A DNA stretch of 64,000 nucleotides from positions 18,283 to 82,282 of the forward strand of contig JAYQTA010000009.1 in the NCBI GenBank assembly GCA_038147155.1. Direction: 5' to 3'. A program made the translations under genes and the position numbers. The stretch's first letter is position 1, and every line of letters begins with the position of its first letter. The notes below the pieces were generated by a model. That model searched no databases. It was not told the origin of the DNA and was given only the letters and a program-made list of their open reading frames with translations. This document shows, piece after piece, positions 16,572-61,616 of the stretch. Source of the DNA: Candidatus Australimonas brisbanensis (GTDB lineage Bacteria; Chloroflexota; Dehalococcoidia; Lucifugimonadales; Australimonadaceae).

Positions 16572-18295
16572 CGCCGGATGCGCCGCGCGGCCAGGCCCGC
16601 GAGAACCAGGACCGACAGCACGCCCACCGCGGCCAGCAGCCCCAGCGCCGCCGCCTCCCCGGTGTGGTTCCCCCACAGCCGCCACACCAGGGTGCTCACC
16701 ACCAACGGCTCGCCCTCGCGGGTGAGCACCAGGGGCAGCGTGAGTTCCCGCACGGCCACCACCGCCAGCAGTGCCCACGCCGCCAGGGTGGAGGGGGCGG
16801 CCAGCGGGGCCAGCACCGAGCGCAGGACACGCACCGGCCCTGCCCCGGCCACAAGTGCGGCATCGCCCAGCGCCTGGTCCAGCTGCCCCAGGCCCGCGGC
16901 CTGCACCCGGTAGGCCAGGGCGATGCGGTAGGCGTAGGCGAGCACCAGCACCGCCAGGGGGGCGATGGGCGGCAGCCACAGGTAGAACACCAGCAGGCCG
17001 TTGGCCGCCAGCACCGCGGGCAGCGCCACGGATGACGAGGCCAGCGCGTCCACCCCCGCGCCCACGCGCCGGCCCACCACGCACATGCGCACGGCCCACG
17101 CCAGCACCAGCGCCACCCCCACGGCCAGGGAGGGCGCGGCCACGGCCAGCACCGCCGTGTTGGCCAGGGCCCCTGGCAATCGCGCATCGCCCAGGAGGCC
17201 ACGGTACTGGTCGAGGGACGCCAGCGCCCATGCCTCGCGCCCCGGTGGCAGGTACTGGGGTAGCAGGCTGGTCCACGCCAGCACCGCCAGCGGGGCCAGC
17301 GCGGTGAGGGCCAGCCACCCGCCCACCAGGCCCGCCGCGGGCCAGCGCCAGCGCCCCAGGGCCAGCGGGGCGCGCGGGTGCCCCCCGGCGCGCAGGGTGG
17401 CGAAGCGCGCGCCCTGGCGCGTGAGCCGGGCGAAGGCCCACACCAGCACCCCCGTCAGCGCCAGGACGTGCAGCCCCAGTGCGGCCACGGTGCCGTGCGC
17501 GGGTTGCCCTCCCACGGCGTCGGCCAGCGCGTAGTAGATGCGGGTGGAGAAGATGTCCGCCCCCGCCCCCAGCGCCAGCAGCAGCGGCACCTCGAACGCC
17601 TCCACCGTGAGCACCGCCGCCAGCGCCATGGCCCCCAGCAGGTGGGGGCGCACCGCGGGCAGGGTGATGTGCAGCGCCACCCGCCAGTCCGGCGCCCCTC
17701 CCACGCGTGCGGCCTCCTCCAGCGCGGGGTCCACGTTGCGCAGCGCGGCGCGGGCGAACAGGTAGAGGAGCGTCACCAGCCCAACCCCCTGCACGAAGAC
17801 CATCCCGCCCATGCTGAAGGGATCGAAGGGCCCGGCGCTGGCGGGCCAGGGCAGAAGCCAGCGCCAGGCCAGGTTCATCAGCCCCGTGCGCTCCCCCAGC
17901 AGGAGCACCCAGCCGATGGTCTGGGCGATGGGGGGCGTGAGCAGGGGGGCCAGCAGCACCAGGGGCACCAGGGCGCGGCCCGGCAGGTCGGTGCGCTCGG
18001 TGAGCCAGGCCAGGGGGACGGCGATGACGGTGCCCACCAGCACGGAGCCCGCCGTGAACAGGGCCGTGTCCCCGGCCGTGCCCCACAGCCCGCCGCCTGC
18101 GTACAGCCCCGTCACGTTGCCCAGGCCCCAACCGGTGCCCTGGGCGAAGGGCAGGGCGGTGGCCGGCACCCGGAACGCCCCCAGCGCCAGAACCAACAGG
18201 GGCGGGGCCACCAGCCAGCACGCCGCCACCACTCCGGCCAGGGCGGGCAGGCGGGGCGAGCGGAGCGCGCGGCGGAGGGCGGTGAGAGGTTGCAC
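16568..18295 (-). CDS. Fe3+/thiamine-type ABC transporter permease (FbpB-like, duplicated TM domain)
   Basis: LAWLTERTDLPGR, EAA loops LEEAARVGGA and LGDAALVAGA; GTG start 18295. Confidence 0.88.
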   Translation of the reverse strand: MQPLTALRRALRSPRLPALAGVVAACWLVAPPLLVLALGAFRVPATALPFAQGTGWGLGNVTGLYAGGGLWGTAGDTALFTAGSVLVGTVIAVPLAWLTERTDLPGRALVPLVLLAPLLTPPIAQTIGWVLLLGERTGLMNLAWRWLLPWPASAGPFDPFSMGGMVFVQGVGLVTLLYLFARAALRNVDPALEEAARVGGAPDWRVALHITLPAVRPHLLGAMALAAVLTVEAFEVPLLLALGAGADIFSTRIYYALADAVGGQPAHGTVAALGLHVLALTGVLVWAFARLTRQGARFATLRAGGHPRAPLALGRWRWPAAGLVGGWLALTALAPLAVLAWTSLLPQYLPPGREAWALASLDQYRGLLGDARLPGALANTAVLAVAAPSLAVGVALVLAWAVRMCVVGRRVGAGVDALASSSVALPAVLAANGLLVFYLWLPPIAPLAVLVLAYAYRIALAYRVQAAGLGQLDQALGDAALVAGAGPVRVLRSVLAPLAAPSTLAAWALLAVVAVRELTLPLVLTREGEPLVVSTLVWRLWGNHTGEAAALGLLAAVGVLSVLVLAGLAARRIRR

Positions 18296-24619: not shown

Positions 24620-25621
24620 TCAACGAACGCGGCGCCGCCCCCAGGGCGGCGCCTCGATTTGCCTGCGCCCTCCCGAGGTCTGGCCGGGCCGCACCACCAG
24701 CACCGGGCCTGAGCTGTGGCGGATGACCCGGTCGGCCACCGACCCCAGCACCCAGCGCTTGACGCCGGAGCGCCCGTGCGTGCCCATGACGGCGAGCTTG
24801 TCGCCGCCCTCACCCAGCTCCTCAAGGATAGCGGTGCCGGGGTAGCCGGTCATAGCGACCTCGTTCACGTCACTGATGCCTGCTGCCTTCACCTACTGGG
24901 CGATCTTGGAGGCGTACTGCTGGGCGTCGGCCTCCACCTCTGCGTACAGGTCATCGTAGGCGGCGGGCACGTACTCAGCGAAGGTGTCGCCGAAGGCGGT
25001 GGGGGGGATGGCGCGCAGCACGGTGATGCCGGTGCCCAGCGCCTTGGCCATCTCGATGGCGTGGGAGATGGCGCGCTCGCCCGTCTCGGATCCGTCCACC
25101 GCGAGCACCACGCGGGAGATCCTGGGCGCGGCGGAGGCCACGTCACCTTCGGCTGAGCGGATCACCAGCGTCGCGTGGTTGGCCTCACGCACCTTCTTGT
25201 CGGTGACGGAGCCCATGACCCAGCGCCCCACGCCGGAGCGACCGTGAGTGGAGATGACGATGAGCGTCTCGGCCACCTTGGTCGCCTCGGTGTTGATGGC
25301 ATCAGCCGGGTCGCCCTCAGCGGCGATGCTGCCCATCTTGGCGCCGGAACCCTTCAGGTTCGCGGCCTCCTTGGCCAGGCCTGTCTCGGCTGCCTTGCGC
25401 TGCGCGGCGGTCATCTCGGCCAGTTTGGTGGGGTCGACCTTCGCCGCCACGCCCTCACGCATGCCCCGGCCCACCTCCGCCCAGATCCCCTCGGGCAGGG
25501 CGTTCTAGGCGCGCAGCAGGTCCACGCGCGCGCCGGTGGAACGGGCCACCAGCAGGGCAACGGGCAGCGCCTGGAGCGCCAGGGCGGAACCGTCCAGGGG
25601 AATCAGCACACGCTTGTACAT
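24620..25621 (-). pseudogene. Tandem-domain universal stress protein with two in-frame TAG codons (as sequenced)
   Basis: One frame from ATG 25621 (MYKRVLIPLDGS) to TGA 24620; TAG at 25505-25507 (codon 39) and 24893-24895 (codon 243); two USP signatures STHGRSG...MGSVTDK and GTHGRSG...LGSVADRV. Confidence 0.85.
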
Positions 25622-25659
25622 GCGGACCTCCTCCGAGGTGGAACGGGTTGGGGACGAGA

Positions 25660-26407
25660 CTACTGGGCGGTGAAGCCCCCGTCGGCCACCAGCTCGGCGC
25701 CGGTGACGAAGGAGGCCTCGTCAGAGGCCAGGAACAGGATGCAGTTGGCGATCTCCACGGGCTGCGCCATGCGGCCGATGGGGTGCATGCGCTTGCCCAG
25801 GTCCGGGTCGGCGCTCAGCGCACCCTCGGTCATGGGAGTGACGACCCCGCCGGGGTGCACGGAGTTCACCCGCACGCCCTCGGCGGCGTACCCCACCGCA
25901 GCGGCCTTCGTGATCAGGTGCACGGCGGCCTTCGTCGCCCCATAGAGGGGGGGGGGTGTACACCATGCCCACCAGCCCCGAGATGGACGAGACGTTGACG
26001 ATGGACCCGCCACCATTCACGCGCATGTGGCGCACCGCCTCGCGTGTGCCCAGGTAGCACCCACGGGCGTTCACCGCCATCAGCCGCTCCCAATCGTCCA
26101 GGGACGATTCGGCCAGGGGCCCCATGGCGAGGATGCCCGCGTTGTTAACCACGATGTCCAATCGCCCGAAGCGGCGCACCGCCTCACCCATTGCCCCCGC
26201 CCACGCGGCCTCGTCGGCCACGTCCAGGTGCAGGTAGGCGGCCTGGGCGCCGCCCTTGGTGAGCCGTGCGGCAAGCGCCTGACCGGGCTCGTCCAGCACA
26301 TCAGCGATGAGTACGCTGGCACCCTCCTGGCAGAAGCGCTCCGCCGTGGCCGCGCCGATGCCACGCGCCGCTCCGGTGACGAGGGCAACCTTGCCAGACA
26401 ACCTCAT
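25660..26407 (-). CDS. SDR oxidoreductase with a +1 frameshift in a C10 run
   Basis: TGAARGIG, VNNAG, NVSSISG; catalytic YGATK and NSVHPG continue in another frame after the G10 at 25947-25956. Confidence 0.88.
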
Positions 26408-26523
26408 GCGCACCTCTGTGGGCCTGGGTGGGACTCCACACCCGCCACCGTCAGGCTAGGAGAGGGCCGTCAATCCATCGTTAGGGGAGGGCATGGCGGC
26501 GTGAAGGGTGCGTGAAGGTGCGC

Positions 26524-27345
26524 TCAGGAGGCGGGCACATCACGGAAACCCGTCAATACCGCGCTCACCAGCAGGCGTTGGTCGTACTTGAGGCGTGGGT
26601 AGCAGGTGACGAGCGTGAGGCGGGCGTCGCCTGCCTGGGTCAGTTCCAGCGCCTCTGCGGGGACGATGCCGGTGCCGCTCACCTGGTAGAGGTACTGGCG
26701 GCTTCCGGTCTGGAGGATGACGTGCACGTCCTCCCCCGCCCGCAGCAGTCCCGGTATCTGGGGAAGCGCGGCGAAGACGTTGCCCTCCCCCAGCACCGGC
26801 GATTCCAGGTGGCCGAAGTACCACCCATTGCCGTGGGAGCCGGGGTTGGGTGTTGCGGGGATGTGCCCCACCATGAACTTGGGCGTCTCGTAGGCCGATG
26901 AGTCGCCCAGGTCCAGGATGGCCAGTTCATCCACCGCTGCGTCCACGCCGATGGCGGGGATGATGATGCGCTCGGCCTGGCCCACTGCCCCGGACAGCGA
27001 GGGCTGCCCCAGTGGAGAGAGGGGGATGAACCCCTCCAGCGTGCCCGCGCCGGGCACCGCGAAGCCGAGGGTACCGCGCGGGTCGGCCCACTGGCGCGCG
27101 GGCAACTGGCTGCCGGGGTAGAGGGAGGCCCATGCGCCCGCCTGGCTTCCGGGGCCTGCGGGGGTGGGCGTGGACAGCGTCTCCGCCGGGCCGCCCGTGG
27201 TCACCAGCCCGCCCGCCCCGCGTCCTGCCAGGAAGGTGTAGGCGTAGTAGGCAACCGCTCCGGCCAGGAGCACCAGGCCCACGACCAGCATGCCGGTGGA
27301 GGCCCAGAGGCGCAGACGTGAGGAACGCTGTGGCGAGGGGCTCAT
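26524..27345 (-). CDS. Sortase family protein
   Basis: N-terminal TM, RIIIPAIGVDA, YFGHLES (His), LTLVTCYP (Cys), RLLV (Arg). Confidence 0.88.
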   Translation of the reverse strand: MSPSPQRSSRLRLWASTGMLVVGLVLLAGAVAYYAYTFLAGRGAGGLVTTGGPAETLSTPTPAGPGSQAGAWASLYPGSQLPARQWADPRGTLGFAVPGAGTLEGFIPLSPLGQPSLSGAVGQAERIIIPAIGVDAAVDELAILDLGDSSAYETPKFMVGHIPATPNPGSHGNGWYFGHLESPVLGEGNVFAALPQIPGLLRAGEDVHVILQTGSRQYLYQVSGTGIVPAEALELTQAGDARLTLVTCYPRLKYDQRLLVSAVLTGFRDVPAS

Positions 27346-27388
27346 CACCACGGGTACGCTCCGGGGCGGCGTTCGGACGCCTGCCGGG

Positions 27389-27577
27389 TCAGCGCCCGCG
27401 CCCCTCCCCATCGGAGATGGGCTCGTTGCGGATGATCTCGCCGTTGCGGATCTTCAGGTTGAAGCCGCATGCGGGGTTGGTGCAGACCCATGCCTTGTAG
27501 TGTACCGGCGCGCCCTGCCCGCCGAAATCAGACAGGGGCACCAGGTCACCGGCACCGCACGAGCGGCAGGGGGGCAT
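27389..27577 (-). CDS. Small Zn-finger-like protein
   Basis: CRSC...LVPLSDFG...YKAWVCTNPACGFNLKI, 62 aa; GGAG upstream. Confidence 0.75.
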   Translation of the reverse strand: MPPCRSCGAGDLVPLSDFGGQGAPVHYKAWVCTNPACGFNLKIRNGEIIRNEPISDGEGRGR

Positions 27578-27747
27578 GCTCACATCCACAGGGCTCCTCC
27601 TCGTGCGTGGCGCCCCAGGGGCGCCCGGCCCGCCCTTGCGGGTGGGCGACGCGGATACTACCACCGCGTGCGGTGAACCGTCCGTGGGGGCATGGATTGG
27701 GCGCGACGGGCGGTCTATGCTGGCCGGGTTGGCAGTGGAGGTGCGGG

Positions 27748-28503
27748 ATGCTGGAGCAGACGGTGCGGCACGTGCGGCGGCTCATCATGCCGTGGATCTC
27801 TCGCTCCAACAGCCAGCGCCGGCATGAGGGGCACCGGCCCGAGGGCTCCATGCTGCGGGAGGTGGTGTTCGGCGCCAACGATGGGCTGGTGTCAAACGTG
27901 GCTCTGGTGGCTGGCATCGCGGGCGGCACCTCGGACCCCAAGGTCATCGTCCTCGGCGGTGTGGCGGGCCTGGTTGCCGGGGCCATCTCCATGTCCCTGG
28001 GCGCCTACGTGTCCACCAAGTCGGAGCGTGAGTTCCGCGAGGCCGAGGAGGCCCGGGAGCGCTACGAGGTGGAGCACATGCGGGAGGTTGAGCTGGCGGA
28101 GACGCGGCACATCTTTCGCCTCAAGGGCATCACCGGCCCGCTGCTGGACGAGGTGGTGGAGACGGTCTCCCGCGATCACGACGCCTGGGTGCAGCTGATG
28201 ATGACCGAGGAGCTGGGCTTCCCCGACCAGCCCCCGCGCCCCGTGCTCTCCGCAGCCCTCATGGGCATCGCCTTCGCCGTGGCCGCCTGCGCACCGGTGC
28301 TGCCCTACCTGTTCCTGGAGGGCACGTCCGCCTTCGCCGCGTCGGTGGGGTTCACGGGCGCTGCGCTCTTCGCCGTGGGCGCCTGGCGCGCCACCCTCAG
28401 CGCGGGCAACGTGCTGGTGAAGGGGACGGAGATGGTGCTGCTGGCCGCCGCCGCCGTGGTGGTGGCGAACCTGATCGGCAAGCTGGTGGGCGTGAGCCTC
28501 TAG
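27748..28503 (+). CDS. VIT1/CCC1 family Fe/Mn transporter
   Basis: REVVFGANDGLVS, AGAISMSLGAYVS, MMTEELG; ATG 27748. Confidence 0.92.
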   Translation: MLEQTVRHVRRLIMPWISRSNSQRRHEGHRPEGSMLREVVFGANDGLVSNVALVAGIAGGTSDPKVIVLGGVAGLVAGAISMSLGAYVSTKSEREFREAEEARERYEVEHMREVELAETRHIFRLKGITGPLLDEVVETVSRDHDAWVQLMMTEELGFPDQPPRPVLSAALMGIAFAVAACAPVLPYLFLEGTSAFAASVGFTGAALFAVGAWRATLSAGNVLVKGTEMVLLAAAAVVVANLIGKLVGVSL

Positions 28504-29414
28504 CGCGCGCCCAGCGCCGCCAGGGCGGTGAGCAGTTCGCCCCGGTTCACCAGCCCCTCGAAGCGCGCGGCCACGTTGCCGTCGCCGTCCACAACGAAGG
28601 TCCACGGCTCGGTGGGCAGCCCCCACTCGGTGGCCTCCGGGGCCAGCACCAGGCGGCCCTCCTCGCGGGCGAGCGAGAGCACCCACGGCTCGATGTGCAG
28701 CATGGGCACGCGTCCACCCAGCGCCTCGTATGCCGCGGCCACCTCGTCCACCACGGGCCCGCACAGCGCACTCACGCAGAAGGCCGGCGAGGCGAAGGCC
28801 ACCACGAAGGGCTCGCCCAGCGCCAGCGCACCGGCCACGGAGTGGCCGTGGAGCGGGTCCGTCTCCACCGCTCGGGAGGAGAGGTCCCGGAATGATGCGT
28901 CGGCCAGGGTCAGATTGGCCGTGGGCGGTGCGGGTGCACCGATGGCGGGGACCGTGGTGGCGTCCACCCGGAACGCGGGCGGCTCCACGCGGACGGCGCG
29001 GCCCTGGGCATTCACTGCGTCCAGATGCGCCTGGTAGGTGCCAGCCGTGGGCAGCATCACCCCGTCCGCCGTGTAGTAGCCGCGCACGTCGAAATGGGTG
29101 TGGAGCGAGCCGTCGGGATGGGGGTGCGGCGTCCCGCCCTCGGCCCGGCGCCACGTGGCCCGCGCCTCGGCCACCTGCTCCTCGCTCCCGTCCGCCAGCA
29201 GACGCACGATGCGCACCGTGACGTCGGCATCCTCCAGCAGCACGCCGTTCACGTCGGCCAGCACGAAGGGGATGCGATTGAGCCCGGGGGTGAACTGGGT
29301 GGCGGTGAGGAAGCCGGAGTAGGTGGGCGCCTGCGTGTCGCCGCAGCCAGCCAGCGCCGCGAGCAGCGCGGCGGACAGGGCCATGACGGTGGTGAGACGG
29401 CAGAGGATGCGCAT
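28500..29414 (-). CDS. Lipoprotein with C-terminal thioredoxin-like domain
   Basis: Lipobox LAGC, FASPAFCVSALCGP, WGLPTEPWTFVVD; His-rich HPHPDGSLHTH. Confidence 0.7.
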   Translation of the reverse strand: MRILCRLTTVMALSAALLAALAGCGDTQAPTYSGFLTATQFTPGLNRIPFVLADVNGVLLEDADVTVRIVRLLADGSEEQVAEARATWRRAEGGTPHPHPDGSLHTHFDVRGYYTADGVMLPTAGTYQAHLDAVNAQGRAVRVEPPAFRVDATTVPAIGAPAPPTANLTLADASFRDLSSRAVETDPLHGHSVAGALALGEPFVVAFASPAFCVSALCGPVVDEVAAAYEALGGRVPMLHIEPWVLSLAREEGRLVLAPEATEWGLPTEPWTFVVDGDGNVAARFEGLVNRGELLTALAALGAR

Positions 29415-29423
29415 GGGGTTGCG

Positions 29424-29500
29424 TGGTGGGCGGTAGAGGACTCGAACCTCTGACCTCCGCGATGTCAACGCGACGCTCTAACCAACTGAGCTAACCGCCC
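29424..29500 (-). tRNA. tRNA-Val (anticodon GAC), CCA encoded
   Basis: GGGCGGT acceptor stem, D arm GCTC/GAGC, anticodon loop TT-GAC-AT, TTCGAGT loop, 3' ACCA; 77 nt; TATACT at 29512-29517 upstream. Confidence 0.97.
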
Positions 29501-29580
29501 GCAACTCGGCCAGTATAGCGGGCGCTTGTGGTGCCCGCCTAGCGGCGGGCCCGCCACGCCCCTTTGGCCCGGCGCTTTTC

Positions 29581-29938
29581 CCGCTCGCTACGCTCGCTCG
29601 ATGGAAGGGGGGCTCCCCCTGTCCCCAGCTGCCTGCGGCAGCCTCGTTCCCGGGGACTCCCCTGCGCCCCCTCCGGGGGCTACCCCGTCTACGCGCCCTG
29701 CCGGGCGCTCAACGTGGGGCCTGCGGCCCCGCTCGCTGCGCTCGCTCATGGAAGCAGGCGCGTGGCCTGCTCGCATAGTTCGCGATAGAGAGTGGGGCTC
29801 AGCCCCAAAAGCGCCGACAAGCCTAGGAGTGTCCGGGCTAGGGGGGTGCAGTGGGGGAGTGCAACTCCCCCCGCCGGGGGTTCGGCGCGCAGCGCCCAGG
29901 GGGTGTCCCCCTTCAGACGAGCGAACGAAGTGAGCGGG
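29581..29938. repeat. Modular palindromic intergenic repeat, copy A
   Basis: 29741-29924 closely matches 56665-56846; 29643-29745 matches the reverse complement of 42227-42327; 20-nt terminal inverted repeat (17/20) at 29581-29600 / 29918-29937. Confidence 0.85.
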
Positions 29939-30096
29939 CCCCCTCGCGCGCGCACGCGTGGCGTACGCACGCGCGATGTGCTATGGTTGTGCGGATTTAA
30001 TCGCAGATATCGCTGCGCGCTGTTGGCGTGCCACCAGATATGGGGTGATTGTCCCGCTGCCCACCGCGCTGGTGGGCCTCGCTGAAAGGAGCCCGC

Positions 30097-32730
30097 ATGG
30101 TTCTCGGTTCCGGCAACATCCGCCCGGTCCGCATCGAGGAGGAGATGCGCTCGGCGTACCTGGACTACGCCATGAGCGTCATCGTCTCGCGGGCGCTGCC
30201 CGACGTGCGCGACGGCATGAAGCCCGTGCACCGGCGCATCCTCTACGCCATGCAGGGCATGGGGCTGCGCCCCGGCTCCTCCTACAAGAAGTCGGCGGCG
30301 GTGGTGGGCGAGGTGCTGGGCAAGTACCACCCCCACGGCGACTCGGCGGTGTACGACGCCCTGGTCCGCATGGCGCAGGACTTCTCCATGCGCCACCCGC
30401 TGGTGGACGGGCAGGGGAACTTCGGCTCCGTGGACGATGACCCCCCGGCAGCCATGCGCTACACCGAGGCGCGGCTGGCGGCGGTGGCCGAGCAGGTGCT
30501 GGCGGACATCGATCGCGACACGGTGGACTTCGCCGACAACTACGACGGCTCCCAGCGCGAGCCCACGGTGCTGCCGACCCGCCTGCCCAACCTGCTGATC
30601 AACGGCGCGTCGGGCATCGCGGTGGGAATGGCCACCAACATCCCTCCCCACAACCTGCGGGAGGTGGCGGCGGCCATCGCGCACCTGATTGAGAATCCCG
30701 ATGCCACCGTGGACGACCTGATGGGGTTCATCCACGGGCCGGACTTCCCCACCGCCGGCATCATCATGGGCAAGGAGGGGCTGCTCCAGGCCGCGCACAC
30801 GGGCCGGGGCAGGGTGGTGGTGCGTTCGCGCGCCAGCGTCGAGGACATGGAGCGCGGCGACCGCCAGCGCATCGTGGTCACCGAGCTGCCCTACCAGGTG
30901 AACAAGGCGAGCCTCGTGGAGAAGATCGCCACCCTCTCCAAGGAGAAGAAGATCGAGGGCATCTCCGAGGTGCGGGACGAGTCCGACCGGGAGGGTCTGC
31001 GGGTGGTGATTGAGCTCTCGCGCGGGGCCGCCCCGGACCAGGTGCTCAACAACCTGTTCAAGCACACCACGATGCAGTCCGCCTTCCACGTGAACATGGT
31101 GGCCCTGGTGGATGGCCAACCCCGCGTGCTCTCCCTGCGCGCCGCGCTGGTTGCGTTCATCGAGTTCCGCCGCAACGTGGTGCGCCGGCGCGCCGAGTAC
31201 GACCTAGGCCGCGCCCGCGAGCGCGCCCACATCCTGGAGGGGCTGCGCATCGCGCTGGAGAACCTGGACGCGGTGATCGCCCTGATCAGGGCCTCCGCGG
31301 ACACGGAGGCTGCGCGCAACGGGCTGATGCAGCAGTTCGGCCTCACGGAGACCCAGGCCCAGGCCATCCTGGAGATGCAGCTGCGCCGCCTGGCCGCCCT
31401 GGAGCGCGAGCGCATCGAGAACGAGTACCGTGACCTGATGGCCCGCATCGCGGACCTGGAGGGGCTGCTGTCGGATCCCGCGCGGGTGCTGGCGGTGGTC
31501 AAGGACGAGACGGCCGAGGTGGCCCGAGCCTTCGGCAACCCCCGGCGCACGGAGGTGTGGGAGCAGGAGGCACAGGACTTCTCCAAGGAGGAGCTGACCC
31601 CCCACGCCGACGTGGTGATCACCCTCTCGGACCGCGGCTACGTCAAGCGGCTGCCCATCGAGGCCTACCGGCTCCAGCGCCGGGGCGGCAAGGGCGTGCG
31701 CGGGCAGGAGACGCGCGAGGGTGATGCGATCCAGCAGCTGGTGGTGTGCGACACCCATGACTGGCTGCTGTTCTTCACCGACAAGGGGCGCGTGTACCGC
31801 GAGCGCGTGTTCAACGTGAAGGAGGACTCCACCCGCCAGACGCGCGGCACCCCCGTGCAGAACTACATCGCCATCAACCCGGCGGAGGAGACGGTGACGG
31901 CGGTGGTGTCCATCACGGACCTAGAGGTGGACAAGTACATCTTCATGGCCACGCGCATGGGCGAGGTCAAGCGCATGGCGCTGGCCCAGTTCGCCAACAT
32001 CCGCTCCAACGGCCTGGCCGCCTTCGACCTGGAGAAGGGCGACGCGCTGCTGGGCGCCCGCCTCGCGGATGAGTCCATGACGGCCATCATGGTCACCCGC
32101 AACGGCAAGGGCGTGCAGTTCGCGCTCACCGACGTGCCGGTGCGTCAGACGCGCGGCGCGGGCGGGGTGCGCGGCATCCGGCTGCTGGACGACGACGAGC
32201 TGGTGGGCATGGACGTGGCCAACCCCGACGACCAGCTCTTGGTGCTGACGGTGCGCGGGTTCGGCAAGCGCACACCGGTCAACCGCTTCCGCACCACGGG
32301 GCGCAACGTGCAGGGGGTGATCGCCCTCAAGATCTCTGACAAGACCGGCTCCCTGGCAGGTGCGGTGATCACCGGGCCCGACGTGGAGGAGGTGATGGTG
32401 GGTTCCTCCAAGGCCATGGTCTACCGCACGCGGCTGGAGGAGATCCGCACCCTGGGCCGCAATACCCAGGGCGTCATGGTGATGACCAAGCTGGCCGACG
32501 CCGACCGCGTCATCTCCCTCTCCGCCTTCAAGGAGCGCTCCTGGGAGGAGATCCCGCAGCTGCCGTCCCTGGCCGCAGCCCCCAAGCCCCCCGCGGGCAA
32601 GCGGGGGAAGAGCGCCGCCGCACCGCCACCGCCCGCACCGGCCCCGCAGCTGGCGCTGGGCCTCGATGACCAGGAGCCGGACGAGCCGGACGCCGAGGAC
32701 GCCGCAGATGAGGAAGAGGAGGACGAGTAG
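30097..32730 (+). CDS. gyrA: DNA gyrase subunit A
   Basis: [29 protein letters not shown], GyrA-box QRRGGKG, acidic tail; ATG 30097 after AAAGGAG. Confidence 0.97.
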
Positions 32731-32795
32731 GCGTCCTGGCCCCCCACCCCTTGTCAGCAACGGGCTGGGGCGGCTAAAATCCCCTGGTTGTGAGC

Positions 32796-33161
32796 ATGAA
32801 CTACGCAATCATCGAAACCGGCGGAAAGCAGTACCGGGTCCAGCCCGGTCAGACCATCACCGTGGAGAAGCTCCCCGGCGAGGTGGGCAGCACGGTCGAA
32901 CTCGACCGTGTGCTCCTCCTGGCCCAGGACGGCGCGGCCACCGTTGGCACCCCCACCGTTGAGGGGGCCAAGGTCGTGGCCGAGGTGGCCGAGCAGGGGC
33001 GCGGCGATAAGGTGATCGTCTTCAAGTACAAGCCCAAGGTGCGCTACCAGGTGAAGCAGGGCCACCGCCAGTGGCTGACGAAGCTCTCCATCAAGGAGAT
33101 CGTCGGTTCCGGCGCGGGGGCGGCTCCCAAGCGCACGCGGAGCAAGAGCAGTGGCGCATAA
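32796..33161 (+). CDS. rplU: 50S ribosomal protein L21
   Basis: [22 protein letters not shown]; C-terminal extension overlaps the rpmA start. Confidence 0.96.
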
Positions 33162-33411
33162 GAAGGCAGGCGGTTCCAGCCGCAACGGACGCGACTCCAA
33201 GAGCAAGCGCCTCGGCGTGAAGCGCTTCGGGGGTGAGCAGGTGCGCGCGGGGACCATCATCCTGCGTCAGCGCGGCACCCAGTTCTTCCCGGGCCTGAAC
33301 GTGGGCATGGGGCGCGACCACACGCTGTACGCACTGGTGGATGGTGAGGTCAAGTTCGACCACGCCACCAAGCTGCGCAAGCGGGCCAACATCGTCCCCG
33401 CCACGGCCTAG
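33151..33411 (+). CDS. rpmA: 50S ribosomal protein L27
   Basis: [20 protein letters not shown]. Confidence 0.97.
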
Positions 33412-33485
33412 CAGCACCGTTCTCCAGGGCCCGGGCATCATACTGGCACGGGCCTTGCTCGTTCCCAAGGCACAGGAGCAGCACG

Positions 33486-33689
33486 ATGAAGACCGGGATC
33501 CACCCCACCTACTACGAGGAAGCGCAGGTTACCTGCTCGTGCGGGAACACATTCACCACGGGTGCCACCACCCCCACCATCAAGGTGGAGATTTGCGGCG
33601 CCTGCCACCCCTTCTACACCGGTGAGCAGCGCATCGTGGACACCGAGGGTCGGGTGGAGCGCCTGAAGCGCCGCTTCAACCTCCAGTAG
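33486..33689 (+). CDS. rpmE: 50S ribosomal protein L31 (Zn-binding type)
   Basis: [21 protein letters not shown]. Confidence 0.97.
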
Positions 33690-33712
33690 CCCCCTTTCGG
33701 GCGGGAGTCCCC

Positions 33713-34606
33713 GTGTCCCAACAGCGGTTCGTGTACGGCGGTCAGGCGGTCATCGAGGGTGTGATGATCCGCGGGCGCAGCGCGTACACCGTCGCCGCGC
33801 GCCACCCCGACGGCTCCATCCGCACCATCCGCCGCCCCGTGCCCACCTGGAGCACCGGGCGCTGGCGGCGCGTGCCCTTCGTGCGCGGCGTGCTGGTGCT
33901 TGCCGAGTCGCTGGTGGTGGGCATGCGCGCCCTCACCTACTCGGCCCAGGTGGCCGCGGGTGAGGAGGAGGACGAGCAGCCCATCCCCGCCTGGGCCCTG
34001 GCGCTGACCATGGCGGCCTCCCTGGGGTTGGGCGTCGGTCTCTTCTTCGTCCTGCCCCTGGTGCTCACCCACTACGGCGTGGATCGGTTCACCGGCAACT
34101 CCATCCTCTCCAACCTGGGGGAGGGGGTGCTGCGCTTGGGCATCTTCTTCGCCTACCTGGGCCTGGTGGGGCTGATGCCATCCATCCGCCGGGTGTTCGG
34201 CTACCATGCCGCTGAGCACATGGCCGTCCATACCAACGAGCATGCGCTGGACCTGGAACCGGACAACCTGCGCCGGTTCCCCGCCGCGCACCCGCGCTGC
34301 GGCACGGCCTTCCTGCTCACGGTGATGCTGGTGAGCATCGTGGTCTTCGCGCTGCTGGGTACGCCGGACCTCCCCCTGCGCATCGCATCGCGCATCGTCC
34401 TGGTGCCGGTGATCGCCGGCATCTCCTACGAGGTGATCCGCTTCAACGCGGCGCACTCCGGCAATTGGCTGGTGCGTGCGGGGACCATCCCCTCGCTGGC
34501 GCTCCAGGCCCTCACCACCCGCAAGCCGGACGATGGGCAGATCGAGGTGGCCATCGCCGCCATGAACGCGGCCATCGCCGCCGATGAGGCCCCCGAGGCC
34601 GCCTAG
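33713..34606 (+). CDS. DUF1385 membrane protein
   Basis: YGGQAVIEGVMIR, YHAAEH, HPRCGTAF, LTTRKPDD; usual neighbour of rpmE. Confidence 0.9.
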   Translation: MSQQRFVYGGQAVIEGVMIRGRSAYTVAARHPDGSIRTIRRPVPTWSTGRWRRVPFVRGVLVLAESLVVGMRALTYSAQVAAGEEEDEQPIPAWALALTMAASLGLGVGLFFVLPLVLTHYGVDRFTGNSILSNLGEGVLRLGIFFAYLGLVGLMPSIRRVFGYHAAEHMAVHTNEHALDLEPDNLRRFPAAHPRCGTAFLLTVMLVSIVVFALLGTPDLPLRIASRIVLVPVIAGISYEVIRFNAAHSGNWLVRAGTIPSLALQALTTRKPDDGQIEVAIAAMNAAIAADEAPEAA

Positions 34607-34658
34607 GCGCACCGCCTGCACGCGCGGGCGCATCTCAAGACCAGTGAGGTGAGCCCCT

Positions 34659-35093
34659 ATGTCCAACGCCGGCGTCCCACTGAACCGTGTGTCCGTGGAG
34701 TGCCTCACGGGGTTGGCCGCCCGCGCCTCTGCCCGCGGTCACGTGGTGGTGGCCGACGAACCCCCCTCGGCAGGGGGCGCCGATGAGGGCATGCGCCCCT
34801 CTGAGCTGCTCCTCTCCTCACTGGGCGGCTGAATCGCCATCACGCTCCGGCTGTACGCCGGGAGGAAGGACTGGGCGCTGCGCGAGGTGCGGGTGGAACT
34901 GGCCCACCGCAAGGTGGAGGCGGAAGGTGGCTCGCCGGTGGACGAGATCGACGTCGAGGTCACCGTCACCGGCGACCTCGACGCCGCGCAACTCGAACGC
35001 CTGGAGCAGATATCCGGCCGCTGCCCCGTGGCCCGCACCCTCAAGGGTGGAGGGCTGCGCATCAGCGAGCGCCTCACCCACCTCCCGGCCTAG
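34659..35093 (+). CDS. OsmC/Ohr-family protein, probable selenoprotein (TGA codon 58 = Sec)
   Basis: One frame ATG 34659 to TAG 35093: ADEPPSAGGADEGMRPSELLLSSLGG[TGA]IAITLRLYAGRKDW ... RCPVARTL; TGA at 34830-34832 occupies the first catalytic Cys position. Confidence 0.85.
34845..34864 (+). promoter_or_regulatory. Candidate bacterial SECIS hairpin
   Basis: CTCCGGC-TGTAC-GCCGGGAG: 7-bp stem with one bulged G, GU in a 5-nt apical loop beginning 19 nt after the UGA. Confidence 0.7.
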
Positions 35094-35998
35094 CGCACGT
35101 TCACGCTGGCCGCCCCCACGCTGATGGACAGGTCCACCCGGTCCTGCGCCGTGGCGTAGTCCGCCGACTCCCACACGTCCCCGGACTTGGGGAAGCGCTC
35201 CGCGTCCACGCTTACTGACGAGAGCCCCGACGATGCCCTGATGCGCGCCGCCACCCCCACCGGGATGATAAGGGTGATGTCCGCCGCGCCGCCGCTCACG
35301 CTGGCGCTGAGGCGCCCGTAGGCGGGCAGCGTGATGCTCACGTCCGCCGCACCAACGATGACGGAGAGGCTCTCGATGGACAGCGCGGACAGGTCCACGT
35401 CAGCGTCCGCCGCGCCGATGTCCAGGTCCATCGCCATGGGGATGCCGCGCGCCAGGGCGATGTCCCAGTTCGCGTCGTTCTCACCCCAGCCGAAGGGCAG
35501 GTCGAGGAGGCCACCCTCGCCGGGCGCGTAGCGCAGGGTGGCCGTCCCGCCGGTGCGCTCTACCGCGGCGATGGGGTCCTTGCCGGGCATCACCTGGGTA
35601 GACTCGGCCAGCAGGCGTGAGTCCTCGGGAAGGGCGTTCAGGCGCAGCGAGCCCGCGCCGAAGTCCACCTCCACGTCCATGTGCGAGACGGGCACGATGC
35701 CCAGCGGCTCGTTCACGTAGAGGGTGCACATGCCCGCGTGGGTGGGGCCGATGAGCGCGGCGAGAGCGATGGCCCCGGCCAGCAGCGCCGCCACGATGGC
35801 TCCCGCCACCAGGGGCGCGCGCCGCCCCAGCACCAACTGCACGCCGGCGATGATGATCAGCACTGGCCACAGGCGCTAGAGTGCGCCCCACACGCCCCAG
35901 GCCACCACGCCGGTGGTCTGGAGCAGCAGCAGCGCACCCAGGGCCACCAGCACCAGGCCGCCGATGGGGATGCGTGAACGCCTGGGTTCCTTGTTCAT
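35090..35998 (-). pseudogene. LiaF/DUF5668-type membrane protein with C-terminal beta-repeat (DUF2154-like) domain; one in-frame TAG as sequenced
   Basis: ATG 35998 MNKEPRRSRIPIGGLVLVALGALLLL...GAL[TAG 35876-35878]RLWPVLIIIAG; C-terminal repeats LDIGAADADVDL, VSGGAADITL. Confidence 0.8.
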
Positions 35999-36462
35999 CG
36001 CTTGCCTCCGCGCATCTGGCGGCCGGCGATGATGAACACGCCCACGCCGATGATGACCAACGGCCAGAACACGTCCCAGCGCCACCAGAAGAAGACGTTG
36101 AAGTTGGAGGCGAGCAGCACCGCCCCCACCAGCACCAGCACCAGTCCGGCGGCCATGCGGCGGCGCTCGCGCATCGCACCGCGGCGCTCCTTGTCCTCAG
36201 GGGTCGGCGCGCTGGCGGGGCTTGCATCCTTCGCCATCGGGTCATCAGGCATGCCGGAGACCAACGGGTCGGCGGTCTTGGGCGCCTCGGGCAGGGCGAT
36301 GGCCAGGATGATCTAAGCGATGATGCCCACCCCGGAGGCGAGGGTCAGGGCGGCGAAGACCACCCGCACCAGCACCGGGTCCACCTCGAAGTACTCGGCG
36401 AGTCCGCCACAGACCCCCCAGATCACCTTCTCCTTGGAGCTCTTATGCAGCCGTTGTTCCAT
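35995..36462 (-). pseudogene. pspC: PspC-domain protein with C-terminal TM hairpin; one in-frame TAG as sequenced
   Basis: [34 protein letters not shown]...GIIA[TAG 36313-36315]IILAIALP; frame runs on to TGA overlapping the next ATG (ATGA). Confidence 0.85.
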
Positions 36463-36658
36463 GGGTGCCTCCCCGGCGTGGTGTTGGGCCCATCTTTCAG
36501 CGTGCACGCTAGGGGCCATGCGTGCGGCGGACGTGTACCCATTACCATCGGACGTGGAAGGGGCGTGAACGGTTCCCGTCGGCCGAGGGGTGTGGGAGGA
36601 GGGACCGTGCGGTGGTAGGCTTGCGCCGCTGGAGTCAGCGGGCACAGGGAGGTGACGC

Positions 36659-44941: not shown

Positions 44942-46483
44942 ATGCCCCAGCGTGGTGAAGAGCTCCTGCAGAGCCGCCGCGCCAAGTTGGCGCGCCTGCG
45001 CGAGCGGGGCATCGACCCCTACCCCCCTCGCTTCAAGCGCACCCATGACACGGCGCAGGCCGCTGCCGCCTTCAACGCGGCGGAGGGTGCGGGCGGCGCG
45101 CCTGTGCGCGCGTCGGTGGCCGGACGCCTCACCCGCGCACGCAACATGGGCAAGGCCGCGTTCCTGGACATCGAGGACTCCGCCGGACGCCTCCAACTCT
45201 TTCTGCGGCGCGACGCGCTGGGCGAGGGCTACGCCTTGCTCGATGAACTGGACCTGGGCGACTTCGTGGGCGCCTCCGGCACCATGATCCGCACCCGCAT
45301 GGGTGAGGTGTCGCTGGAGGCCGAGTCGCTCACGTTCCTGGCCAAGGCGCTGCGCCCGCCGCCCGGCAAGTTCCACGGTCTGAAGGACGTGGAGCGCCGG
45401 TACCGGCAGCGTTACCTCGACCTGATCGCCAACCGTGACGTGCACGAGACTATGCGCGCGCGTTCGCGCATCATCTCCGGCATCCGCCGTTTCTTCGATG
45501 GGCGCGGGTACCTGGAGGTGGACACGCCGGTGCTGGTGCCGGTGCCCGCCGGGGCCATGGCCCAGCCCTTCGTGACCGAGCACCTGGCCCTGGGGCGCCA
45601 ACTCTTCCTGCGCATCGCTACCGAGCTCTACCTCAAGCGGCTCATGGTGGGCGGGATGGACCGGGTGTACGAGATAGGCCGGGTGTTCCGCAACGAGGGC
45701 ATCGACGCCGACCACAACCCGGAGTTTACGCTCCTGGAGTCGTACGAGGCCTACGCCGACTACAACGACATCATGGCGCTGGTGGAGGCGCTGGTGCCGC
45801 AGGTGGCGCAGGAGGCGGTGGGCACCACCAGCGTGGAGTTCGAGGGCCAGCCCATCGAACTGGCCGGCCCGTGGCCGCGCCTGGGCCTGTACGATGCGGT
45901 GCGTGAGTACGCGGGGGTGGACCTGAACCACCACCCTGACGCACGCTCCCTCGCCGATAAGATGCGCGAGCTGGGCGTCCCCGCCACCTACGCGGAGAGC
46001 CGGGGGCGGCTCATCGACAAGCTGGTGGGCACCTACGTCGAGCCCCGCCTCATCCAGCCGACGTTCCTGGTGGACTACCCGGTGGAGATGTCCCCCCTGG
46101 CCAAGGCGAGCCCGGACGACCCGCGCTACGCCGAGCGGTTCGAGGCCTTCGCTGCGGGCATGGAGATCGCCAACTCCTTCACGGAGCTGAACGACGCCGA
46201 CGTGCAGCGCCAGCGCCTCAGCGACCAGGAGGAGCTGCGCAAGCACTATCAGGGTGAGGACCTGGATCGGCTGGACGAGGACTTCCTGCGCGCCCTGGAA
46301 CACGGTATGCCCCCCACCGGGGGCCTAGGCATCGGGATAGACCGGCTGGTGATGTTGCTCACGGGGCAGAAGACCATCCGGGACGTGCTGCTCTTCCCCC
46401 AGGTGCGTGAGGCAGCGCCCGGGGCGCCAGAGGACGACCTGGACGACGAGGACGAGGAGGACGGGGCCGATGCTCGCGCTTGA
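44942..46483 (+). CDS. lysS: Lysyl-tRNA synthetase (class II)
   Basis: RYRQRYLDLI, LRIATELYLKRL, FRNEG, HNPEFT, GMPPTGGLGIGIDR. Confidence 0.97.
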   Translation: MPQRGEELLQSRRAKLARLRERGIDPYPPRFKRTHDTAQAAAAFNAAEGAGGAPVRASVAGRLTRARNMGKAAFLDIEDSAGRLQLFLRRDALGEGYALLDELDLGDFVGASGTMIRTRMGEVSLEAESLTFLAKALRPPPGKFHGLKDVERRYRQRYLDLIANRDVHETMRARSRIISGIRRFFDGRGYLEVDTPVLVPVPAGAMAQPFVTEHLALGRQLFLRIATELYLKRLMVGGMDRVYEIGRVFRNEGIDADHNPEFTLLESYEAYADYNDIMALVEALVPQVAQEAVGTTSVEFEGQPIELAGPWPRLGLYDAVREYAGVDLNHHPDARSLADKMRELGVPATYAESRGRLIDKLVGTYVEPRLIQPTFLVDYPVEMSPLAKASPDDPRYAERFEAFAAGMEIANSFTELNDADVQRQRLSDQEELRKHYQGEDLDRLDEDFLRALEHGMPPTGGLGIGIDRLVMLLTGQKTIRDVLLFPQVREAAPGAPEDDLDDEDEEDGADARA

Positions 46484-49126: not shown

Positions 49127-50795
<1,669 letters not shown>

Positions 50796-59059: not shown

Positions 59060-59129
59060 GAGGGCCAGCACAACCACCTGGGGAGGCTTGTTCCAGAGGC
59101 CGCCACGGCGGGTTGTGTTGCGAGGCGGG

Positions 59130-60192
59130 CTAGGCCGGCCGGGGGGCCCCGAGCATCAGCGCCTCCAGGGCCAGACGCGGGGTGGCGTTGCGCTCCAGCG
59201 CATCCAGGGTGCGTTCTGTGGCGCGCAGCCAGCCCGTCAGCGCCGCTGGGGCGATGCCGGAAGCCAGGCGACGCAGGGTGCCCGCCCAGGCGGTGTGGAG
59301 GATGCGCTCTTCCTGCCCGTGCTGGAGCAGCAGCGTCGCGCAGCCAGCGCGTCCACAGCGCCAGTTCATCGCGCCCTGCCGCGCGGTCGCGCTGGAAGCG
59401 CCGGGCCAACTCCTCGGCGTAGGCGAACCGTTCGGCCAGCCCCCCCTCGCACACGGCGGCGATGCGCTCCAGCCGCTGGTGCAGCCCCGCGGGCACCGAG
59501 GGGTCGTGCGCGGCGGTGATGGCCCAGCCGATGCACCCGCGTGAGAGGCGCGCTAGGGTGGCCGCCTGCTCGGGGGACTGACCGTGCTCCGCCTCCAGCA
59601 CCTGCGCCACCTCCGCCTCCGGCAGGGGGCGCAGGGCAATCTCCTGACAGCGGGAGCGGATCGTGGGGAGCACCCCGTCGGGGTTAGCGGTCACCAGCAC
59701 CAGCAGCACGCCGGGCGGCGGCTCCTCCAGCACCTTGAGCAGGGCGTTGGCGGCGGCCTCCTGCATCCGGTCGGCGGGGTCGATGACGTACACCCGCGAG
59801 CGCCCCTCGTAGGGCAGCAGGTGGGCGGAGGCGATGAGCTCACGCACCCGCTCGATGCCGATGACGGTGGTGGGGCCCTTCTCCGCTTCGGCGTCCACGG
59901 TGAGCGTCTGCACGTCAGTGCTCGCCCGCCGCGATGCGGGTGCAGGCGCGGCACGCCCCACAGGGCACGCTGGTGACGGGGGCCAGGGCAGGTTCGCCGA
60001 AGTCCATGGCCAGGGGCCTCGGCGGAGGCAACGACGGCGATGCAGTTCACCGCCTGCGCCAGCGCGGTGGCAAGAGGTCGCCTTGCCCACGTGGGCCGGG
60101 CCGGTGAGCAGGTAGGCGTGGGAGAGGCGCCCGGCGGCCAGCGCCCCCTCCAGCGCCCGCACGGCGCCCTCGTGCCCGTGCAGGGGGAACAC
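59130..60192 (-). CDS. holB: DNA polymerase III delta' subunit with at least four apparent frameshifts
   Basis: HAYLLTGPAHVGK, PCGACRAC (shifted frame), AANALLKVLEEPP, LPTIRSRCQ, NATPRLALE; indels near 60075, 60030-59970, 59920 and 59335. Confidence 0.88.
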
Positions 60193-60194
60193 GC

Positions 60195-61512
60195 TGAGAG
60201 CACGTCCTGGGCCATCAGGTCGGCGTAGGACTCGCGCCGGCGTATCAGCGTGGCCTTCCGTCGCGCACCAGCACCACGGCGGGGCGCCCGTTCAGGTTGT
60301 AGGTGGAGGCCCATGCTGGGGCGTACGCCCCGGAGGCGGGGATGGCGATGATGCTGCCCGCCTTCGCCGGGGGGATGTGCGCATCGCGAACCAGCACGTC
60401 GCCCGACTCGCAGTCTTGCCCGCGATGGTCACCGTCTGGGCGGGCTTGGCGGCGGCGTCATCGGCCACCAGCGCCACGTAGCGCGAGCCGTAGAGGGCAG
60501 GGCGGATGTTATCGCCCATGCCTCCGTCCACGGACACGTAGGTGCGCACGCCGGGCACGTCCTTGATGACGCCCACGGTGTAGAGGGTGACCCCGGCGGG
60601 GCCGGTGATGGACCGGCCCGGCTCGACGATGAGGGTGGGTTCTTCCAGCCCGTGGCGCGCGCACCCCTCGCGCAGCGCCCCCACGATGGCGTTCGCGTAG
60701 TCCGCCTTGGCGGGGGGCTCGTCGGAGTCGAGATAGGCGATGGCGAAGCCGCCGCCGGGGGAGAACTCCTGGAGGCGCAGCCCCTCCTCCCTCATCTCCG
60801 CGGCGAAGGCCAGCACCCGCGCCACGGCCTCGGTGTAGGGCTCCAGCTCGAAGATGGGCGAGCCCAGGTGGAAGTGCAGCCCGCGCACGTCCAGGTGGGG
60901 CGCGTCCAGCGCAAGGCGCACGGCCCTGGCGGCATCACCCGTCTCCAGGGGGAAGCCGAACTTGGAGTCCAGCGTGCCCGTGGTGGTCAGCCGGTGCGTG
61001 TGGGGGTCGATGGACGGGGAGATGCGCAGCAGCACCGGCTGGCGCACGCCAGCCTCGCCAGCGATCTCGTTGAGCAGGGTGAGCTCGTTGAATCCGTCCA
61101 CCACGATGCGCCCGATGCCCCAGGAGACGGCATCGCGCAGCTCCTGCGGGGTCTTGTTGTTGCCGTGGAAGTAGACCGACTCCAAGTCCACCCCCGCCGC
61201 GTGCAGCAGGGCCAGCTCACCGCCGGAGACCACATCGAACCCCACGCCCCAGGAGGCCAGCTTGCGGGCGAGGGCCACGTTGATGAACGCCTTGCAGGCG
61301 TAGGAGACCTGCGTTGCGGGGTAGACGGCCCGGAAGTCGCGCAGGTAGCCGGTGGCCTGCGCCTCCAGGGTCGCCTCGTCGAACACGTAGAGGGGCGTGC
61401 CGAACTCACCGGCCAGGGCCACGGTATCGCACCCGCCGATGCGCAGGTGTCCGGCCCCGTCCACCTCGGCGGTGATGGGGAAGACCTTGGCATGGGGGGC
61501 GGGGGTGCTCAC
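60195..61512 (-). CDS. lysA: Diaminopimelate decarboxylase (3' end frameshifted as sequenced; end approximate)
   Basis: FGTPLYVFDE, YACKAF, DVVSGGEL, HGNNK, HFHLGS, EPGRSI, DNIRPALY; C-terminal [Y]CESGD and YNLNGRP in a shifted frame after about 60414. Confidence 0.92.
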
Positions 61513-61616
61513 GGGGCGTGCTCCTCGGTGGGGATGATGGCTCAGGATAGCCCGGCCCACGCGTGCGGCGCCAGGGTCAGCGGGGCCAGTCCCCGCGCGC
61601 CACCCCCGGTGCTAGG

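Follow-up and report, generated by a model that had tools for sequence, protein, structure and literature searches.

Why should the in-frame amber codons of a bacterial genome fall in stress genes and the damage to its essential genes take the form of insertions and deletions? The question is raised by a 64,000-nucleotide stretch of the draft genome of Candidatus Australimonas brisbanensis (Chloroflexota; Dehalococcoidia), the whole of which is here called the window. It spans positions 18,283 to 82,282 of contig JAYQTA010000009.1 (C9:18283-82282 when contigs are numbered, as below, with the prefix C) in an assembly of 18 contigs, 1.87 Mb, 70% GC and ~96% completeness. The relatives of its GyrA all come from metagenome-assembled genomes labelled as Dehalococcoidia or Chloroflexota. 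Between window positions 24620 and 36462, four TAG codons interrupt genes for a universal stress protein (USP), a PspC-domain protein and a LiaF-like protein, and elsewhere in the window the reading frames of groEL, holB and lysA are broken. The initial annotation linked lesion type to gene class and offered three explanations, namely real loss of stress functions, conditional amber read-through in the manner of a stress switch, and systematic sequence error. The reading we favor, to which we assign a probability of about 0.9, is that real gene decay and unrelated indel errors of the assembly are superimposed in the window.

Results

Genuine nonsense mutations account for the four in-frame TAGs

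Lesions were checked by exact-protein look-ups in public assemblies (per-run Logan contigs, JGI and ENA). For comparison we used 826 kb (49%) of the genome of a sister species, G001, which belongs to the same genus and has ~87% nucleotide identity and a median synonymous divergence (dS) of 0.37, together with G002, a member of another genus and the source of an intact PspC orthologue.

Translation and Pfam matches confirmed that, apart from a selenocysteine (Sec)-type TGA, the internal stops in the interval are the four TAGs, two in USP and one each in pspC and liaF (Table 1). The replaced residues had been given as Tyr, Trp and unknown; they do differ, as was claimed, and the series is corrected to Tyr and Gln in USP, Tyr in PspC and Trp in LiaF. 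The first and second USP codons are TAC and CAG, respectively, in an intact 313-aa orthologue encoded on ENA contig k141_2454749, which has 87% amino acid identity. The pspC TAG lies within the PspC domain at a site occupied by Tyr in the G002 orthologue (LLAYIILAII), and the liaF TAG corresponds to TGG in G001 and to Trp in intact 302-aa relatives of 83% and 77% identity.

The four TAGs are genuine nonsense mutations, present in every conspecific sequence found. For each locus, as many as four public runs yielded contigs that cover the TAG sites and match the window without a difference where aligned. Four runs have Logan contigs that encode the exact 189-aa USP fragment, and the gene is again called in pieces of 38, 189 and 68 aa. 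A 257-aa LiaF fragment was found on contigs of SRR26337511 and SRR26337512, which match 700 nt of the window at 100% identity and contain both the pspC and the liaF TAG, through the liaF N-terminus. From another sample, JGI contig Ga0606706_021151 is ~99% identical and again has both USP TAGs. A metagenome scan with the USP protein did not find a conspecific USP, the best match being 45% identical.

These observations bear on the proposal that every lesion, the TAGs among them, stems from faulty base-calling or polishing. The assembly is indeed rich in indel errors (eight within 1.3 kb of holB-lysA and one in groEL, besides five bases missing from a tRNA-Met gene), but k-mer assemblies of four runs and the JGI contig contain the TAGs exactly as in the window, by which the proposal is refuted for all four. 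Over the 2.5 kb in which the window was compared with per-run contigs, the differences consisted of indels and one substitution beside an indel; isolated substitutions numbered zero. Furthermore, the same genes are degraded in G001, and no confirmed nonsense codon was encountered in ~620 conserved G001 open reading frames (ORFs) aligned to the genome (223,000 residues), with a TGA at C5:98989, position 484 in a gene of 510 aa, set aside. We consider the chance that error accounts for all the lesions to be negligible.

Parallel degradation in the sister species

Decay of the USP gene goes beyond its two TAGs. Its natural stop, kept as TAG in the JGI and ENA copies, has become CAG at 24680-24682 in the window, extending the frame by 20 residues (Gln at the old stop and 19 more) to a TGA at 24620. 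The conspecific JGI copy has an additional 2-nt deletion upstream. Counted by hand, the window and JGI copies differ by six nonsynonymous and four synonymous changes, plus one indel and one stop change. Upstream of USP, the gene for a short-chain dehydrogenase (SDR) carries a -1 frameshift in a C10 tract, in which 11 C would restore the frame. The frameshift recurs in Logan contigs of two runs, to which the window is identical across the tract, and represents a genuine mutation of a homopolymer prone to slippage. At the second locus, pspC and liaF overlap by ATGA, and liaF has a ratio of nonsynonymous to synonymous substitution rates (dN/dS) of 0.32 when compared with the G001 remnant, the genome median being 0.15 and the 95th percentile 0.33.

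In G001, parts of these genes have been deleted. The sister species lacks the equivalent of window 24889-26203 by a 1.3-kb microhomology deletion at a short AGGCAGC-like repeat, which removed the 3' half of SDR and joined the SDR N-terminus to the USP C-terminus. At the junction (G001:C3 ~45690-45702), SDR codon ~68 is fused in frame to the last ~70 USP codons in a chimeric 130-aa ORF. Also missing from G001 are the equivalents of 35117-35533 in liaF and of most of 35912-36412 in pspC, and the liaF remnant has a TAG of its own, different from that of the window. In other genera of the family, the USP, PspC and LiaF genes are intact, and there was no internal stop in any family orthologue of USP, LiaF or OtsA whose sequence was read; the "stops inside" USP orthologues of relatives were terminal stops in both cases inspected. 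SDR, USP, pspC and liaF are thus decaying independently in two species.

The indels in groEL, holB and lysA are consensus errors

The indels of groEL, holB and lysA had been read as lesions of essential genes. They are present in the assembly and absent from the organism: all are consensus errors of the assembly, and the genes are intact. In groEL, the assembly has a one-base insertion at 50466 that G001 lacks, and Logan contig SRR26337511_29438, which carries the exact GroES gene followed by groEL, departs from the window over 430 nt only in missing this extra base. The groEL product has 99.6% amino acid identity to that of G001, with a dN/dS of 0.036.

The assembled holB contains 2-nt gaps at ~59335 and ~59917 and extra bases at ~60010 and ~60075, and lysA lacks one nucleotide at each of 60415 and 60261, shows paired homopolymer changes at 60312/60322, and has lost its TAG stop to an extra base (~60196). 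Logan contigs of SRR26337555 and SRR26337511, which bear the exact PSP1 neighbor, both encode an intact 354-aa holB product, and the longer of them (SRR26337555) encodes an intact 439-aa lysA product. The lysA alignment to the per-run contig spans 60261 through the stop, and for 60415 the artefact is deduced from the intact ORF and from G001. The two contigs are concordant at every base over 1.3 kb (window 59120-60480), within which the window shows eight discrepancies, seven of them pure indels and the other a 2-nt gap with an adjacent substitution. Deletions of 1 nt relative to G001 occur also in EF-G, gltB, ribBA and uvrD/pcrA, and a tRNA-Met(CAT) gene (C12:17162-17233) is missing five bases present in G001, such that ARAGORN reads a 2-base anticodon. 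In coding sequence, frameshifts arise about once in 50-90 kb. Substitutions in this assembly are reliable wherever checked, and small indels are not.

The converse proposal, that groEL, holB and lysA are pseudogenes as well and the organism is a degenerating one dependent on a host or partner, would be in keeping with the small genome and with the frequency of lesions in the assembly. It is refuted by the per-run contigs, which are identical elsewhere and lack every one of the indels, leaving lysA and holB intact and the 5' region of groEL uninterrupted; the conservation of groEL, a single-copy gene, argues against it further. We give this proposal essentially no weight.

TAG is the principal stop codon and no decoding machinery for it was found

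Genes of this genome end in TAG in 63% of cases, in TGA in 29% and in TAA in 8%; the TAG share is 59% in G001. Surveys have found TAG usage in bacteria to be low and unresponsive to GC content (the "TAG paradox", PMC9348620), to which this lineage looks like a marked exception. The dominance of TAG coincides with many Sec-type TGAs, and both genomes are ~70% GC.

The machinery that might decode TAG was looked for across the assembly. No tRNA with a CUA anticodon was found by ARAGORN among the 49 tRNAs of all 18 contigs, with the proviso that at ~96% completeness a contig may be missing. PylS was likewise not found with TIGR02367, the best score being 24.4 bits, from matches resembling LysS/PheS, against a cut-off of 178; Methanosarcina acetivorans, the control, passes. 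Release factors 1 and 2 (RF1 and RF2) are both present, with the PAT and SPF motifs, respectively, and uninterrupted PCRF domains. As TAG ends 63% of the genes, weak termination by RF1 is implausible. The initial annotation saw no shared hairpin downstream of the four TAGs, and we likewise saw neither a motif nor a hairpin around them. The bases at +4 are A, G, A and C, and those after terminal TAGs are C (346), G (268), A (84) and T (64), which gives no usable signal. The only Rfam element in the window is a tRNA.

Conditional amber read-through would have the TAGs decoded at low or stress-induced efficiency, by a suppressor tRNA, by pyrrolysine or under limiting RF1, and so serve as a switch. 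The TAGs are stable in all the conspecific sequences found, the USP frame is otherwise whole and both of its domains remain recognizable, and the dN/dS of the USP tail is low (0.17 over 69 codons), as such a switch would have it. Against it stand the missing tRNA(CUA), a PylS score far below the cut-off, the presence of both release factors, and a stop usage that makes efficient termination by RF1 indispensable. Intact relatives have ordinary codons for Tyr, Gln, Tyr and Trp at these sites, and no other lineage conserves the TAGs. Decay moreover goes on, as seen in the lost natural stop of USP, the 2-nt deletion of the JGI copy and the SDR frameshift, and in G001 the genes have simply been deleted. 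With no common sequence context at the TAGs either, we regard such a switch as very improbable. A weaker form, in which leaky TAGs would undergo near-cognate read-through when RF1 is limiting and yield small, condition-dependent amounts of full-length USP, PspC and LiaF, appears to us somewhat less probable still.

Internal stops across the genome show neither a TAG bias nor a functional bias

The expected spectrum of nonsense mutations was calculated from the codon usage of long ORFs under several transition/transversion and GC-to-AT weightings. TAG is expected in 69-71% of single-base nonsense changes, and the probability that four of four would be TAG is 0.22-0.26; moreover, the four TAGs of the window fall in no more than two loci, namely SDR-USP and the pspC-liaF operon. 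That the changes yield TAG follows from the dominance of codons ending in G or C, by which ~70% of one-step nonsense changes lead to it.

A second screen began from 230 candidate stops flanked by coding-like sequence and evaluated them by alignment to G001, by tests of frame based on codon usage, and by Pfam. Seven further internal stops were verified by Pfam, each inside a single domain (Table 1). Together with those of the window, the eleven non-Sec internal stops comprise eight TAG, two TAA and one TGA, in agreement with an expected split of 70/13/17, and they lie in genes of diverse classes. Neither "TAG only" nor "stress genes only" holds genome-wide, and the pattern claimed for the window dissolves in this count. 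A counterpart of the baeRF gene at C6:33174 was not found in the 826 kb of G001. OtsA is intact in most genera of the family, 14 at the least, and G001 has no OtsA; it represents another osmotic-stress function being lost.

Several candidates were rejected. Comparison with G001 ORFs had automatically flagged 15 "internal stops", and nine of the ten examined lay in upstream extensions or antisense frames of stop-to-stop ORFs. A TAG with two frameshifts in an 811-aa ORF of C12 was an antisense artefact, the real gene there being miaB-like. Internal-TAG candidates in an ion-channel and a methyltransferase gene had no Pfam confirmation. Same-frame stops at CoxS/CoxM, GreA/LysS, SpeH/SpeE and USP/TrkA in the window are the junctions of neighboring genes.

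Table 1. Positions of the features discussed. Plain numbers refer to the window; numbers preceded by a contig refer to the assembly.
Feature	Position	Strand	Lesion or internal codon	Support
USP pseudogene, tandem-domain, 333 codons	24620..25621	-	TAG 1 at 25505-25507 and TAG 2 at 24893-24895 (- strand)	Pfam Usp 2.8e-48; translation
SDR pseudogene, upstream of USP	25660..26413	-	-1 frameshift at 25947-25956	Three-frame translation
OsmC-like gene	34659..35093	+	TGA at 34830-34832, catalytic Cys position	Pfam OsmC match spans TGA
LiaF-like (DUF5668/LiaF) pseudogene	35090..35998	-	TAG at 35876-35878	Pfam; Trp in relatives
PspC-domain pseudogene	35995..36477	-	TAG at 36313-36315	Pfam PspC 2.3e-20, match spanning stop
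groEL, sole genome copy	49127..50750	-	One-base insertion in assembly	Pfam Cpn60, split at profile position 70/71
holB (DNA polymerase III delta')	59133..60195	-	Frame-broken in assembly	
lysA (diaminopimelate decarboxylase)	60196..61560	-	Frame-broken in assembly	
Rieske oxygenase	C3:42854		TAG	Pfam
Response regulator	C8:13525		TAG	Pfam
OtsA (trehalose-6-phosphate synthase, GT20)	C8:4139; gene C8:3575-4900		TAG and downstream frameshift	Pfam
Bacterial eRF1-like baeRF family 10/12 (Host_attach) gene	C6:33174		TAG, inside domain	Pfam
HisKA_7TM (histidine-kinase 7TM domain)	C10:28808		TAA	Pfam
ABC ATPase	C2:264277		TAA	Pfam
Aldo-keto reductase	C12:7041		TGA; Trp in G001	Pfam

Probable selenocysteine TGA codons

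The only other internal stop between 24620 and 36462 is the TGA of an OsmC-like gene, which is conserved in G001. A tRNA-Sec gene is located at C8:86178-86275, and the OsmC-like gene is probably that of a selenoprotein and not a lesion. In-frame TGAs occur at Cys positions of redox proteins also at C2:192711, C3:242429, C6:94903, C11:68160, C12:31123, C2:319817 and C2:319625, and these too are probable Sec codons. The carriers of Sec-type TGAs comprise two OsmC-like proteins, one Prx-like, one TlpA/thioredoxin-like, a Grx-like protein with CPHC, a TYC-LC protein, and a MerB-like protein with two such codons. From these matches the genome appears to be rich in selenoproteins.

Discussion

The first of the three explanations proposed for the window, real loss of stress functions, gains support from the independent assemblies and from the deletions in G001 as far as USP, PspC and LiaF are concerned. 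Read-through gained no support, and sequence error, refuted for the TAGs, does explain the indels of groEL, holB and lysA.

Under the reading that we prefer, a small, high-GC Dehalococcoidia lineage is losing accessory stress and envelope genes. Each TAG arose by a one-base change, from TAC and CAG in USP, from TAC or TAT in pspC, and from TGG in liaF. Real nonsense mutations persist only where a gene is dispensable, and this is why the stops are found in "stress" genes. The consensus errors are scattered small indels, mostly deletions of 1-2 nt, that fall irrespective of gene function. The apparent link between lesion type and gene class thus comes about because real mutations are mixed with assembly errors. 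We infer that the TAG-carrying genes are non-functional and not read through, and relaxed selection on them probably reflects genome streamlining.

Several points weigh against this reading or limit its reach. Stop codons aside, the USP frame of this population shows no decay and no frameshift across its 333 codons, and the USP tail common to G001 still has its low dN/dS, a value that at 69 codons only we rate as uninformative on constraint. Inactivation must thus have happened recently, and some natural read-through at a low level would be compatible with the sequence. The checks rest on assembled contigs, which carry neither coverage nor minority variants. The Logan runs have consecutive accession numbers and may represent one study, or even the source reads of the genome, such that they test for assembly or consensus error and not for population-wide fixation; the JGI contig is the only clearly different sample and covers USP only. 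The second screen was incomplete, as a stop had to be flanked on both sides by 50 or more coding-like codons and to have Pfam or G001 support. The indel errors probably derive from long-read consensus.

The two causes of the pattern are each of an already known kind. The decaying genes resemble the ordinary bacterial pseudogenes of reductive or streamlining evolution, with single-base nonsense mutations and a homopolymer frameshift in accessory genes, several lesions per gene (two TAGs and a lost stop in USP), operon neighbors (pspC and liaF) struck together, the same genes already deleted in relatives, and a lesion spectrum that matches the mutational expectation. Nothing essential sets them apart from such pseudogenes; the decay here is recent, the frames are recognizable, and dN/dS is modestly raised. 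The indels in turn resemble the consensus errors of metagenome-assembled genomes in being scattered, 1-2 nt in length, mostly deletions, located in conserved single-copy genes and a tRNA gene, and absent from independent assemblies of reads. Unlike typical errors of this kind, many lie outside long homopolymers, and their density is locally very high (eight in 1.3 kb). With natural amber suppression or reassignment, whether by pyrrolysine, suppressor tRNAs or loss of RF1, the window shares only its in-frame TAGs; it differs in that neither PylS nor tRNA(CUA) was found, the genome encodes RF1 and ends most genes in TAG, and the TAG positions are not conserved.

A candidate for a new mechanism of amber read-through is thereby removed. 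Gene calls from this assembly need frameshift-tolerant handling: its frameshifted essential genes should be treated as consensus errors and the internal TAGs of its accessory genes as real pseudogenes. For the organism, the finding documents that modules for envelope and osmotic stress (USP, PspC-LiaF and OtsA) are being lost in a streamlined, high-GC genus of Dehalococcoidia, which is of modest ecological interest.

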